From: a virus
Direction: 5' to 3' (one strand)
UHGV virus genome: UHGV-0293321
Length of the DNA: 16,182 bases
This document shows, piece by piece, positions 1,036-2,727 of this stretch. Under the pieces are notes generated by a model, which searched no databases, was not told where the DNA came from, and saw only the letters and a list, made by a program, of their open reading frames with translations. Made by a program: the position numbers and the translations under genes. The number at the start of each line of letters is the position of its first letter. The stretch's first letter is position 1.

Positions 1036-1316
1036 GCATAACAGGTAAGAGCATTGAACCCGCAGACCTCGCGGAATTGGTGAAAGGTGCCGCTCAGTGC
1101 TCTTATCGTTGTGGTGAATGCACAGGCTGATGTGTAAGGGCAAGAATCTTTCGCTGGATTCGGTGTGGCCACGTAGCCCGCTGTAGGCAGTTGCAGCAAA
1201 CCGGAGATCAGCACCGGTCGCCACAATCCAAACTGAGCCGTAGCCACTGGCTATCCTGAATTCATCAGTGATAGTTACGCTGCGGCCTTCTACACATGAT
1301 CTTCGTGAAAGCGGGT

Positions 1317-1351
1317 GGCAGGAGGTCGCGCTAACAACCTCCTGCCGTTTT
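1317..1351 (+). terminator. Strong GC-rich hairpin with short T-run (terminator-like or RNA processing structure) in the Q-S leader
   Basis: Perfect 10 bp inverted repeat GGCAGGAGGT (1317-1326) / ACCTCCTGCC (1337-1346) with a 10 nt loop, followed by GTTTT. I recall the same block upstream of lambda S. Confidence 0.45.
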
Positions 1352-1451
1352 GCCCGTGCATATCGGTCACGAACAAATCTGATTACTAAACACAGTAGCC
1401 TGGATTTGTTCTATCAGTAATCGACCTTATTCCTAATTAAATAGAGCAAAT

Positions 1452-1465
1452 CCCCTTATTGGGGG
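1452..1465 (+). promoter_or_regulatory. sdi-like stem-loop controlling choice between the two S start codons
   Basis: CCCC (1452-1455) TTATT GGGGG (1461-1465) hairpin immediately 5' of the ATG-AAG-ATG dual start of S, as in the lambda S translational control region. Confidence 0.5.
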
Positions 1466-1471
1466 TAAGAC

Positions 1472-1795
1472 ATGAAGATGCCAGAAAAACATGACCTGTT
1501 AGCCGCCATTCTCGCGGCAAAGGAACAAGGCATCGGGGCAATCCTTGCGTTTGCAATGGCGTACCTTCGCGGCAGATATAATGGCGGTGCGTTTACAAAA
1601 ACAGTAATCGACGCAACGATGTGCGCCATTATCGCCTGGTTCATTCGTGACCTTCTCGACTTCGCCGGACTAAGTAGCAATCTCGCTTATATAACGAGCG
1701 TGTTCATCGGCTACATCGGTACTGACTCGATAGGTTCGCTTATCAAACGCTTCGCTGCTAAAAAAGCCGGAGTAGAAGATGGTGGAAATCAATAA
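1472..1795 (+). CDS. S: Class I holin/antiholin S, lambda-type (107/105 aa dual-start)
   Basis: Translation [39 protein letters not shown]... is essentially identical to lambda S as recalled (one difference near the C-terminus, GGNQ vs GRNQ). Met1-Lys2-Met3 dual start at 1472 and 1478. Confidence 0.95.
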
Positions 1796-2255
1796 TCAAC
1801 GTAAGGCGTTCCTCGATATGCTGGCGTGGTCAGAGGGAACTGATAACGGACGTCAGAAAACCAGAAATCATGGTTATGACGTCATTGTTGGCGGAGAGCT
1901 ATTCACTGATTACTCCGATCACCCTCGCAAACTTGTCACGCTAAACCCCAAACTCAAATCAACAGCCGCCGGACGCTACCAGCTTCTTTCCCGTTGGTGG
2001 GATGCCTATCGTAAGCAGCTTGGCCTGAAAGACTTCTCTCCGAAAAGCCAGGACGCTGTGGCACTGCAACAGATTAAAGAGCGTGGCGCTTTACCGATGA
2101 TTGATCGCGGTGATATCCGTCAGGCTATCGACCGTTGCAGCAATATCTGGGCTTCACTGCCGGGCGCTGGTTATGGTCAGTTCGAGCATAAGGCTGACAG
2201 CCTGATTGCAAAATTCAAAGAAGCTGGCGGAACAGTCAGAGAGATTGAGGTATGA
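1779..2255 (+). CDS. R: Endolysin R, lambda-type lytic transglycosylase (158 aa)
   Basis: Translation [51 protein letters not shown]... is near-identical to lambda R as recalled. Start overlaps the end of S. Confidence 0.95.
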
Positions 2256-2719
2256 GCAGAGTAACCGCGATTATCTCCGCTCTGGTTATCTGCATCATCG
2301 TCTGCCTGTCATGGGCTGTTAATCATTACCGTGATAATGCCATTACCTACAAAGCCCAGCGCGACAAAAACACCAGAGAACTGAAGCTGGCGAACGCCAC
2401 CATTACTGACATGCAACAGCGCCAGCTTGATGCTGATGCACTCGATGCTAAATACACGAAGGAGTTAGCTGATGCGAAAGCTGAAAATGATGCTCTTCGG
2501 CGCAAGCTTGATAATGGTGGCCGGGTGCTCGTCAAAGGAAAATGCCCTGTGCCATCCTCAGCCGAAACCTCCAGCGCCTCCGGCATGGGCAATGATGCCA
2601 CCGTCGAACTCTCTCCAGTTGCTGGACGAAACGTTCTCGGTATCAGATCCGGAATCATCAGCGACCAAACATCACTGAGAGCGCTGCAGGAATACATCAA
2701 CACGCAGTGCCTGAAATGA
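2252..2719 (+). CDS. Rz: Spanin inner-membrane subunit Rz (i-spanin, 155 aa); N-terminal half lambda-like, C-terminal half divergent
   Basis: N-terminus [40 protein letters not shown]... matches lambda Rz as recalled, with an N-terminal transmembrane segment. ATG overlaps the R stop (ATGA). Contains the embedded +1 frame Rz1. Confidence 0.9.
2472..2678 (+). CDS. Rz1: Spanin outer-membrane lipoprotein Rz1 (o-spanin), fully embedded in Rz in the +1 frame
   Basis: Strong RBS AAGGAG at 2459-2464. Signal peptide [18 protein letters not shown] followed by Cys (lipobox VAGC), then a Pro-rich mature region ([11 protein letters not shown]). Same embedded architecture as lambda Rz/Rz1. Confidence 0.85.
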
Positions 2720-2727
2720 ACAATCAT

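Follow-up and report, generated by a model that had tools for sequence, protein, structure and literature searches.

How does a lysis gene come to match phage lambda closely in its first half and to depart from it in the second, with the change falling just past the start of another gene nested inside it? The locus that raises this question lies in the viral genome UHGV-0293321, of which a stretch of 16,182 nucleotides (hereafter the window, to which all positions refer) was analysed. Nucleotides 2252-2719 very probably encode a predicted Rz/Rz1 spanin pair that is a natural recombinant of old lambdoid/P22-like allele families of the Enterobacteriaceae.

Layout of the lysis cassette

The lysis genes and the elements next to them are arranged as follows:

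1472-1795, plus strand: holin S, lambda type (Pfam PF05106, E 2.4e-30)
1779-2255, plus strand: endolysin R, lambda type (assigned by identity to lambda R alone)
2252-2719, plus strand: Rz, inner-membrane spanin subunit, 155 aa (PF03245; PHROG 13), hybrid, lambda-like in its 5' part and of PS119/HK620 type in its 3' part
2459-2464, plus strand: Shine-Dalgarno sequence AAGGAG of Rz1 (sequence reading), the same bases being Rz codons K70-E71
2472-2678, plus strand: Rz1, outer-membrane lipoprotein spanin subunit, 68 aa, HK620-type (PF06085; PHROG 3198)
2728-2747, no strand given: GC-rich hairpin directly 3' of the Rz stop (pattern scan)

Rz1 lies entirely inside Rz and is read in its +1 frame from its own Shine-Dalgarno sequence, 7 nt upstream, and its own ATG, which falls inside the Rz codons D74-A75. 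Both reading frames are intact. A Pfam search with R returned no match at E ≤ 0.01. An antisense open reading frame at 2347-2727 (126 aa) was rejected as a mechanical ORF within a doubly coding region. Between 900 and 3400, promoter and terminator patterns occurred at or below shuffle expectation, except for the hairpin after Rz; the scan called it on the minus strand, and on the plus strand it reads AGCCTCG-TAATAG-CGAGGCT followed by TTTTAC. Searches of the whole window with Rfam (gathering thresholds) and ARAGORN gave no matches.

Similarity to lambda ends within Rz

The comparison with lambda divides this region into the following parts:

1222-2496, plus strand: lambda-like tract comprising the late leader, S, R and Rz codons 1-82 (ungapped blastn against lambda)
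2371-2449, plus strand: variant patch in the first coiled coil, an HK620-type allele (T41, T50, Q56, L59, A61, D62)
2486-2497, plus strand: main junction interval against lambda, Rz codons 79-82 and Rz1 codons 5-9 (informative sites)

The preliminary description had read S, R and the first 80 or so codons of Rz as near-lambda, and a local blastn search against lambda (NC_001416; Rz at 45966-46427, Rz1 at 46186-46368) bears this out, with a single ungapped match of 96.4% identity between window 1222-2499 and lambda 44936-46213. S is 98.8% identical to lambda S at the nucleotide level with one amino acid change, R is 96.2% identical with two (16 of its 18 nucleotide changes are silent), and Rz codons 1-82 are 92.7% identical with six. 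Most of the mismatches in the 5' part of Rz (14 of 18) are located in 2371-2449, a patch with 100% identity to HK620. In 60-nt windows the identity to lambda is 0.92-1.00 up to 2406, 0.83-0.95 at 2377-2496 and 0.45-0.62 from 2497, so that the sharp drop expected near 2480-2520 is indeed present. More precisely, the switch lies between 2485, the last lambda-specific site, and 2497, the first non-lambda site, which is 11-25 nt past the Rz1 ATG at 2472. When lambda and ST104 serve as references, the informative sites number 28 lambda-like and 7 ST104-like before the switch and 6 and 98 after it; the maximum chi-square of 78 was reached by none of 5000 permutations (p ≤ 2e-4).

The proteins follow the same course. 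Rz is 93% identical to its lambda counterpart over residues 1-83 and only 34% identical over residues 84-155, as had been supposed for a C-terminal domain that leaves lambda near nucleotide 2500. For Rz1 the identity is 39% overall in a global alignment and 33% in the mature part, while a local BLASTP alignment covers 61 aa with 44% identity and 59% positives (E 1e-10). Rz1 had been described as differing from lambda Rz1 from codon 2 onward. It does belong to a different allele family, but codons 3-8 (KLKMML) are those of lambda and the divergence begins at codon 9 (2496-2498); at codon 2 a polymorphism of a single base separates R here from L in lambda, and 76 of 81 lambda-type genes have R. 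Rz1 measures 60 aa in lambda and 68 aa here, and the two phages carry different families from Rz R84 and Rz1 codon 9. In both, Rz1 is nested and starts at the same site, and they share the membrane anchor and first coiled coil.

Relatives of the 3' module

Downstream of the main junction the nearest relatives change:

2497-2643, plus strand: PS119/HK620-type module (99% identical to HK620 and ST104, about 50% to lambda)

This module comprises the end of the first coiled coil and the linker in the Rz frame, and the signal-peptide core, lipobox and Pro-rich region in the Rz1 frame. It is 95-100% identical to HK620 and to P22-like Salmonella phages of the PS119/ST104 type, or 99% in a comparison of five segments. 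In PS119, ST104, SE1 and SPN9CC (gene 15 + Rz1) the 3' module matches the window at 99% over 2497-2643, whereas the holin (13) and endolysin (19) of these phages bear no relation to lambda S and R, their first-coiled-coil allele is only 77% identical over 2317-2449 and their last 76 nt are 83% identical.

Could the step in identity simply reflect unequal rates, with S, R and the Rz 5' part constrained and the doubly coding 3' part evolving fast? The gene is most variable past the Rz1 start in every sample, and both the linker of Rz and the signal peptide of Rz1 are tolerant of changes (Cahill 2017, PMC5295617). Divergence without recombination is nevertheless highly improbable. Neutral divergence in R must be low, as the mostly silent differences in this 96%-identical gene indicate, and yet identity falls to about 50% from 2497; the 3' types are bimodal with no intermediates, and the permutations did not reproduce the switch. 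What refutes this explanation is that the nearest relatives to the left and right of 2497 disagree: ST104 is 95-100% identical over 2467-2643 and at random level over S and R, and lambda has the reverse pattern. The holin/endolysin region of ST104 has only random-level identity to the window (0.08-0.52). Because the holin and endolysin genes of ST104 are unrelated to those of lambda, the near-identical 3' part reflects recombination and not uneven divergence. Relative to lambda, the distal part of Rz and almost all of Rz1 are thus of another allele family, joined by recombination, as had been proposed.

The same hybrid is found at the same position and over its full length in HK620, where S, R and the 5' part of Rz are lambda-like and the 3' part beyond the joint is of PS119 type (Rz is HK620p37, NC_002730 17319-17786; the nested Rz1 is unannotated there). 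The Rz genes of HK620 and the window are 95.3% identical overall and 100% identical over 2377-2553, with 22 nucleotide differences, and both lie in a P22-like podovirus late operon. The two phages differ in the Q gene and downstream of the Rz stop, where the window has 2720-2957 with a 62-aa ORF (no Pfam match) and HK620 has hkbK and hkbL. The arrangement is therefore already known, since this hybrid was sequenced in coliphage HK620 in 2001. The GenBank note on HK620 Rz reads "similar to Rz protein of Bacteriophage PS119", and a literature search pairing HK620 with PS119 found no paper.

These occurrences also bear on a technical explanation, namely an assembly chimera or two prophages merged into one contig. 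E. coli genomes hold a median of two and up to nine Rz-like places, and a block shared among them could mislead an assembler. The same join, however, is present in the independently sequenced isolated phages HK620, Kapi1, APC_JM3.2, JEP4 and phiv205-1; the exact Rz protein is already public (DAL16378.1) and occurs on seven contigs from several sources; and neither reading frame is interrupted. We rejected this explanation, which has very little probability left. The family assignment and the exact Rz1 protein (WP_136755538.1) are likewise already public. Among E. coli complete genomes the best copy of 2252-2760 is 96.1% identical. The presence of the same hybrid in isolated HK620, Kapi1 and APC_JM3.2 supports the view that the predicted pair would function in lysis.

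A second junction near the end of Rz

The 3' part is itself not uniform:

2604-2646, plus strand: second junction interval, within the PS119-type family (informative-site switch)
2644-2719, plus strand: terminal segment, Rz 131-155 (distal second coiled coil and C-terminal end) and Rz1 58-68, closest to a Citrobacter locus (L234)

With HK620 and L234 as references, informative sites change between 2603 and 2647 from 85 HK620-like and 3 L234-like to 2 and 12, respectively (permutation p ≤ 2e-4). The last 76 nt are 95% identical to L234 (Citrobacter sp.), 91% to L238, 83% to ST104 and 82% to HK620, and 14 of the 22 differences from HK620 are concentrated there (Fisher p 1.3e-7). The last 76 nt are hence closest to an allele from a Citrobacter genome.

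The distal Rz domain and Rz1 had been interpreted as one co-evolving unit that was exchanged as a whole. They do travel together, but because Rz1 lies wholly inside Rz, any crossover upstream of Rz1 moves both, and their co-transfer is not itself evidence of co-evolution. Moreover, the unit is a mosaic; the second junction shows that, within one family at least, an exchange can affect the C-terminal end of Rz and leave out most of Rz1.

Predicted architecture of Rz and Rz1

Rz is a member of the lambda Rz i-spanin family (the "Lambda" i-spanin family of Kongari 2018), with matches to PF03245 (Phage_lysis; 102.2 bits against a cut-off of 25.4, E 3e-29) and, over its full length, to PHROG 13 (E 3.9e-74). 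Residues 1-40 are those of lambda Rz, and the N-terminal anchor (1-24) was judged from this identity. A single-sequence AlphaFold model shows a helix at 3-87 (pLDDT ~80), a region of low confidence at 92-139 and a helix at 139-152 with pLDDT ~50; confidence is low beyond residue 90 and the distal part is unreliable. With this reservation for the distal part, the layout agrees with the domain map of lambda Rz, in which CC1 spans 27-87, the L2 linker 89-120 and CC2 121-150 (Cahill 2017, PMC5295617). Rz C98 and C153 align with the periplasmic C99 and C152 of lambda, so both cysteines are kept.

In Rz1 the following elements were read from the translation:

2517-2528, plus strand: lipobox V-A-G-C (Cys19), then Ser at +2
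2553-2606, plus strand: Pro-rich region, which aligns to lambda KPPPPPAWIMQPP

Rz1 matches PF06085 (70.6 bits, cut-off 27.9) and is 93% identical to both HK620 Rz1 and ST104 Rz1, which are listed together in the "HK620 o-spanin family", a grouping within the lambda Rz family but apart from the lambda o-spanin family (Kongari 2018). It is thus a member of the HK620 o-spanin family. The lipobox and the Pro-rich core are retained, as had been noted: the former (VAGC, C19) corresponds to VVGC (C20) in lambda and, judged by eye, is of the outer-membrane sorting type with Ser and not Asp at +2, and the mature domain keeps the periplasmic C27, the second cysteine shared with lambda Rz1, and the core PKPPAPPAW (PPxPPAW in common with lambda). 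In lambda, Rz E150 interacts with Rz1 R59 (Kongari 2018). This pair is without counterpart here, where Rz has T151 and the Rz1 tail is different, and its absence may be a hint of co-adaptation between Rz and Rz1.

The HK75, HK97, P22 and CUS-3 proteins ("HK97 o-spanin family") have the same anchor (..YTKELADA) and the Rz1 Shine-Dalgarno sequence and ATG at the identical spot, and their Rz end, LQEYIRTQCLK, resembles that of the window. They split from the window right after Rz1 codon 2 (2481), and the mature Rz1 is 30% identical. In a phage-wide blastn search, in which 81 of 665 records span at least 80% of the Rz gene, matches of this HK97/P22 type accordingly end at query position 230 (window 2481), and those of the lambda/Stx type at 248 (window 2499).

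A shared block at the proposed crossover

What would have allowed different 3' parts to join at this place? Across 164 Rz genes of the two types the following block was recognized:

2450-2496, plus strand: conserved block common to lambda-type and PS119-type genes, the candidate crossover zone

The block is nearly invariant in these 164 genes, a conservation that is partly an ascertainment effect, as the samples (IMG/VR, GTDB) were retrieved by peptide patterns that include KAENDALR and LDAKYTKE, the former biasing toward conservation. Downstream, 2497-2643 exists as two discrete types (81 and 83 genes) with no intermediates. Between the 81 lambda-type and the 83 PS119-type genes there is no fixed difference in 2252-2496, and the first one occurs exactly at 2497. 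Because the families lack fixed differences before that point, the crossover can be placed only as upstream of 2497.

We propose a crossover by homologous recombination within the sequence common to both families, which ends at 2496. The 5' part would contribute the membrane anchor with the first coiled coil as far as R83, within the same 1.3-kb lambda-like tract as S and R, and the 3' part would contribute the Rz linker, the second coiled coil and the C-terminal end together with the +1 frame Rz1 from its signal-peptide codon 9. In lambda Rz, lysis-defective missense changes cluster at 57-73, and regions that are sensitive in one gene coincide with silent ones in the other (Cahill 2017, PMC5295617). 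The shared stretch may therefore be conserved because it is doubly constrained, by the mutation-sensitive core of the coiled coil and by the translation start of Rz1. From 2497 the tolerant Rz linker would overlap the degenerate Rz1 signal peptide, which would explain why the families drifted apart downstream. Since Rz1 is nested, it would move together with the distal half of Rz, so that the C-terminal ends that interact stay cognate. Another exchange, at about 2604-2646, probably left this copy with a terminal segment whose closest relative is an allele from a Citrobacter genome.

Genome context and direction of the exchange

Which of the two parts entered the other? Over its whole length the window matches 720R6 (84% coverage, 94.3% identity), Kapi1 (78%, 95.1%) and CUS-3 (76%, 95.8%), in which the corresponding products are annotated. 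The gene order, Q - lysis genes - small and large terminase (the small one assigned by PHROG) - portal - scaffold - coat - ejection proteins, is that of HK620 and CUS-3, and the late operon is of the P22-like (Lederbergvirus) type. The cassette had been called otherwise lambda-like. This holds for 1222-2496 only, as the Q gene, the region downstream and the structural genes are P22-like (HK620, CUS-3, Kapi1).

It is quite possible, though we would put it somewhat below an even chance, that the exchange ran in the opposite direction, such that the P22-like operon had Rz1 and the Rz 3' end of PS119 type as its native genes and the lambda-type tract from the leader through S and R to the Rz 5' part (1222-2496) is incoming. 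This tract would have displaced a PS119-type holin and endolysin, its left crossover falling within the shared late leader and its right one within the conserved 5' half of Rz. Because the backbone outside 1222-2496 is P22-like, its terminase, portal, coat and other genes matching 720R6, Kapi1, CUS-3 and HK620, such a course is equally or more parsimonious than entry of the Rz 3' part and Rz1. PS119-type Rz/Rz1 are, in addition, present in many P22-like Salmonella phages, and homology to ST104 is found on both flanks of the holin-endolysin pair, in the leader (1301-1467, 93.5%, also common with lambda) and at the start of Rz (2257-2316, 97%). Endolysin types, too, reassort freely before both Rz types, each of which is preceded by lambda R, PS119 gp19 or a phage-21-like signal-anchored endolysin. 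On the other hand, modules of the lambda type and of the PS119 type are each known from siphovirus as well as podovirus backgrounds, so there is no definable "native" state, and the event is older than this copy, as HK620 has the same hybrid. A recombinant origin of the spanin pair is common to both directions.

The Rz1 start as a possible recombination joint

Is the junction specific to these two families? Among 43 distinct Rz genes from Escherichia, Citrobacter, Enterobacter, Raoultella, Pantoea and others, likewise retrieved by peptide patterns, the Rz1 ATG and Shine-Dalgarno sequence are at the same place in KELADA in all 43, and AAGGAG or AAGGAA lies 7 nt 5' of the ATG in 42. At least six different continuations begin 0-8 codons past the Rz1 ATG. 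The block with the ATG of Rz1 and its ribosome-binding site is thus common to all the different Rz/Rz1 types, which part from one another within the next 0-8 codons.

Upstream, the alleles of 2317-2449 reassort with the 3' types, and ten loci combine a lambda-type allele with a PS119-type 3' part. Of 83 PS119-type genes, 68 have the pair A61/D62, which is absent from all 71 lambda-type genes scorable for the motif. In lambda Rz, V61A alone is lysis-defective.

Tentatively, and with rather more doubt than confidence, we suggest that the Rz1-start block (K-E-L-A-D-A) could be a universal recombination joint of the lambda-Rz family, and that residues of CC1 could be tuned to the module downstream. 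One conserved inner-membrane half upstream would then be combined with at least six swappable outer-membrane halves downstream, each consisting of the Rz linker, the second coiled coil and Rz1.

Implications

Mosaicism of lambdoid lysis cassettes is textbook knowledge, and the discovery value of this locus is small. It is a worked example of a module boundary that falls on a doubly constrained stretch, in which nesting guarantees the joint inheritance of the interacting spanin ends. The locus also offers natural chimeras for spanin genetics, which combine the first coiled coil of lambda with a foreign distal half, and the naturally occurring A61 of its Rz, at the position where V61A kills lambda Rz, could be used in the same way. 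One i-spanin family has been found paired with seven o-spanin families, which was read as independent evolution of the components (Kongari 2018). A universal joint at the Rz1 start, if true, would account for this pairing, and tuning of CC1 residues to the downstream module, if true, would suggest that the two halves touch each other once the spanin has collapsed into its fusion-active state.

Results

The genes and signals considered here are listed by window position; Rz is the inner-membrane spanin subunit (i-spanin) and Rz1 the outer-membrane lipoprotein subunit (o-spanin), whose gene is nested in Rz.

457-945: Q antiterminator, 162 aa (PHROG 943, PF06530), outside the lambda match
1472-1795, plus strand: lambda-type holin S, 107 codons (Pfam PF05106, lambda S holin family)
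1779-2255, plus strand: lambda-type endolysin R, 158 codons, two residues off lambda R; no match in the Pfam search
2252-2719, plus strand: Rz, 155 codons (Pfam PF03245, 102 bits against a cut-off of 25.4; PHROG agrees)
2459-2464, plus strand: Rz1 Shine-Dalgarno AAGGAG, the same bases encoding Rz K70-E71
2472-2678, plus strand, +1 frame inside Rz: Rz1, 68 codons (PF06085, 70.6 bits against 27.9; PHROG agrees)
2769-2957: 62-aa ORF of unknown function (PHROG 1761 and 5120)

An antisense ORF of 126 codons (2347-2727, minus strand) runs across the part where Rz and Rz1 are both encoded; nothing indicates that it is a gene, and the Stx2 II record (L165) lists comparable antisense ORFs as hypothetical proteins.

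In a local blastn comparison with the lambda reference, the sole match aligned 1222-2499 with lambda 44936-46213, ungapped and at 96.4% identity. At the nucleotide level S is 98.8% identical to lambda (one amino acid change), R 96.2% (two changes, with 16 of 18 base changes silent) and Rz codons 1-82 92.7% (six changes), which bears out the near-lambda character that the preliminary description gave to S, R and the early part of Rz. Identity to lambda, scored in windows of 60 nt, is 0.92-1.00 as far as 2406 and 0.83-0.95 over 2377-2496, but 0.45-0.62 from 2497 to the end. The Salmonella phage ST104 shows the reverse pattern: its holin and endolysin are of a different type, with random-level identity to the window (0.08-0.52), whereas 2497-2643 is 95-100% identical to ST104 and HK620. 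Both phages carry the PS119-type gene 15/Rz1, as do SE1, SPN9CC, SPN3UB and others. With lambda and ST104 as references, informative sites are 28 lambda-like and 7 ST104-like to the left of the break and 6 and 98 to its right, placing the break between 2485 and 2497 (maximum chi-square 78, reached by none of 5000 label permutations), where a drop near 2480-2520 had correctly been predicted. This position is 11-25 nt 3' of the Rz1 ATG (2472-2474), falling in Rz codons 79-82 and, in the other frame, in Rz1 codons 5-9. Protein identity to lambda is 93% for Rz residues 1-83, 34% for residues 84-155, 39% for Rz1 and 33% for mature Rz1.

Rz1 had also been said to differ from lambda from codon 2 onward, which is wrong: codons 3-8 are identical and true divergence begins at codon 9 (2496-2498; lambda Rz1 starts with MLKLKMML-CVMM). 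The codon-2 difference (window 2476) is a single-base polymorphism unrelated to the module, R being present in the window and in 76 of the 81 sampled lambda-type genes from IMG/VR contigs, with lambda's own L in the minority.

Uneven divergence was considered as an explanation of the break and rejected, since the closest relatives switch at one point while silent-site divergence is a few percent on either side. Judged from these alignments, the joint can only be a product of recombination, no other source being possible for such a switch. Its mechanism would be nothing out of the ordinary, a homologous exchange in which two allele families crossed over at a block that both conserve.

We surveyed a sample of 160 IMG/VR viral contigs, of which 80 were recovered by means of the window Rz and the other 80 by means of its lambda counterpart. 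Over 2497-2643 the genes fall into two discrete types, 81 lambda-type and 83 PS119-type, with no intermediates, and alleles of 2317-2449 reassort with both 3' types, 10 loci combining a lambda-type allele with a 3' part of the PS119 type. There are no fixed differences between the types in 2252-2496 and the first lies exactly at 2497, although conservation just 5' of this point is partly a retrieval effect, as the patterns included KAENDALR and ENDALRDD. Three kinds of endolysin (lambda R, PS119 gp19 and a phage-21-like signal-anchored enzyme) occur ahead of either Rz type, which makes the Rz start another joint. When the whole Rz gene was compared with 50,697 phage records by pattern-free blastn, 665 had a match and only 81 covered at least 80% of the gene; lambda/Stx-phage matches end at query position 248 (window 2499) and HK97/P22-type matches at 230 (window 2481). 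A seven-way alignment agrees: divergence sets in directly after Rz1 codon 2 in the HK97/P22 type and after codon 8 in the lambda type. Of 5426 complete E. coli genomes, 5018 contain Rz-like sequence.

Further Rz loci were retrieved. Twenty-two Rz proteins from GTDB genome contigs (L172-L200 and others) are identical to that of lambda, in addition to several copies with apparent sequencing errors; the contigs are about 3.5 kb or 48.4-48.5 kb long, belong to assemblies labelled Kitasatospora, Flavobacterium, Cohnella, Pedobacter, Shewanella, Enterococcus and others, and are most likely lambda control DNA contaminating the assemblies. In UAB_Phi20 (L166, 822-1304) the deposited Rz begins at an internal Met and yields a 99-aa product; the open frame extends upstream through a typical Rz membrane anchor, and the annotation is probably too short. 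Shortened chromosomal copies of 134, 82, 20 and 25 codons (L169, L206, L225 and L230, from Escherichia, Shigella, Raoultella and Enterobacter genomes) are consistent with decaying prophages.

Discussion

Why does the boundary sit at the start of Rz1? The Rz1 ATG straddles Rz D74-A75 (GAT GCx), a position that it keeps in all 43 of the distinct Rz genes taken from species-representative genomes (genera including Escherichia, Citrobacter, Enterobacter, Raoultella, Lelliottia, Scandinavium, Atlantibacter, Phytobacter and Pantoea). In 42 of these it is preceded, at 7 nt, by AAGGAG or AAGGAA. Some of the conservation is due to ascertainment, one retrieval pattern being LDAKYTKE; the LADA codons and the ATG are not within that pattern. 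At least six unrelated-looking continuations start 0-8 codons after the ATG block, among them NATIESLRADV, KKQLDDLQRCV, QKTISDLRRDV and VRENINQLERDV. In lambda Rz the first coiled coil comprises residues 27-87 and the following linker, L2, residues 89-120 (Cahill 2017, PMC5295617); lambda genetics fits a boundary at the shared block, with lysis-defective missense mutations concentrated at residues 57-73 and the sensitive parts of either gene lying over silent parts of its partner. AlphaFold, given the window Rz as a single sequence, models one helix spanning residues 3-87 and assigns low confidence to the part after it. We infer that two overlapping constraints, on the coiled-coil core and on the nested-gene start, would keep the stretch up to 2496 constant, and that its constancy would provide the homology for crossovers. 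3' of 2496, a tolerant Rz linker would overlap a degenerate Rz1 signal peptide, a pairing that may have let the families drift beyond recognition.

The junction itself is confirmed, and its interpretation as an exchange of one co-evolving unit is supported with qualifications. One stretch of DNA encodes both the distal half of Rz and Rz1; their joint transfer is for that reason forced and alone no evidence of selection. The window also has a second junction within the unit. With HK620 and L234, a Citrobacter sp. genome locus, as references, informative sites change from 85/3 to 2/12 between 2603 and 2647 (permutation p <= 2e-4). The 147 nt of 2497-2643 are 99% identical to HK620 vs. 88% to L234 (99% against 88-93% with ST104 and a further Rz locus, L238, included), while the last 76 nt of Rz (2644-2719) are 82-83% identical to HK620/ST104 vs. 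95% to L234 and 91% to L238. These 76 nt encode Rz residues 131-155, the Rz1-contacting part, and of Rz1 itself just the final 11 residues (58-68). The second junction speaks against a strictly indivisible Rz/Rz1 unit. Lambda Rz E150 interacts with Rz1 R59 (Kongari et al. 2018, PMC6139136), a pair without counterpart in the window, which has T151 and a different, longer Rz1 tail; its absence is an indirect hint of Rz/Rz1 co-adaptation. Within 2371-2449 (Rz residues 41-66) there are 14 mismatches to lambda and 100% identity to HK620, giving L59, A61 and D62. V61A by itself renders lambda Rz lysis-defective (Cahill 2017, Table 3, PMC5295617). A61/D62 occurs in 68 of 83 PS119-type vs. 0 of 71 scored lambda-type genes, an association that could reflect epistasis or simply tight linkage.

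The description of an otherwise lambda-like cassette applies to 1222-2496 but not to the genome: Q is outside the lambda match, and everything beyond ~2957 belongs to a late operon of P22-like (Lederbergvirus) type, that of 720R6, Kapi1, CUS-3 and HK620. Lambda similarity starts abruptly at 1222, leaving 946-1221 between Q and the match, which indicates a further mosaic joint between Q and the late leader. The leader (1301-1467) is common to ST104 (93.5%) and lambda, and ST104 also matches Rz 2257-2316 at 97% identity, so that the holin-endolysin pair is flanked by homology on both sides. Given this and the P22-like backbone, it is at least as parsimonious that a P22-like operon had its PS119-type holin and endolysin displaced by a lambda-type tract running from the leader through S and R to the 5' part of Rz as that a lambda cassette acquired a new Rz 3' end. 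The event is older than the window copy, since HK620 has the same hybrid.

Just 3' of Rz lies a GC-rich hairpin (2728-2747). No megablast match was found for 2720-2957 in the phage collection, and matches to P22-like phages resume at ~2957; the 62-aa ORF in this interval, which has no Pfam match, appears to be a small gene inserted between those for lysis and those for packaging.

The mosaic Rz/Rz1 arrangement is already known. HK620 (GenBank AF335538/NC_002730, published 2001) is 95.3% identical to the window over the whole Rz gene, and its depositors labelled Rz “similar to Rz protein of Bacteriophage PS119” and the adjoining S and R “similar to Bacteriophage lambda”. Kapi1, APC_JM3.2, JEP4, phiv205-1 and others carry the same hybrid, and the exact window proteins are public (Rz DAL16378.1, Rz1 WP_136755538.1). 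HK620, ST104, SE1 and SPN9CC have been placed in the lambda Rz i-spanin family of 83 members, and their Rz1 proteins in a separate “HK620” o-spanin family (14) beside “lambda” (28) and “HK97” (32); the occurrence of one i-spanin family with seven o-spanin families was taken to reflect independent evolutionary paths of the components (Kongari et al. 2018, PMC6139136). Independent paths cannot literally hold for nested genes. Our analysis suggests that the conserved non-overlapping half unites the i-spanin family, while the overlapping half diverges or is swapped along with Rz1.
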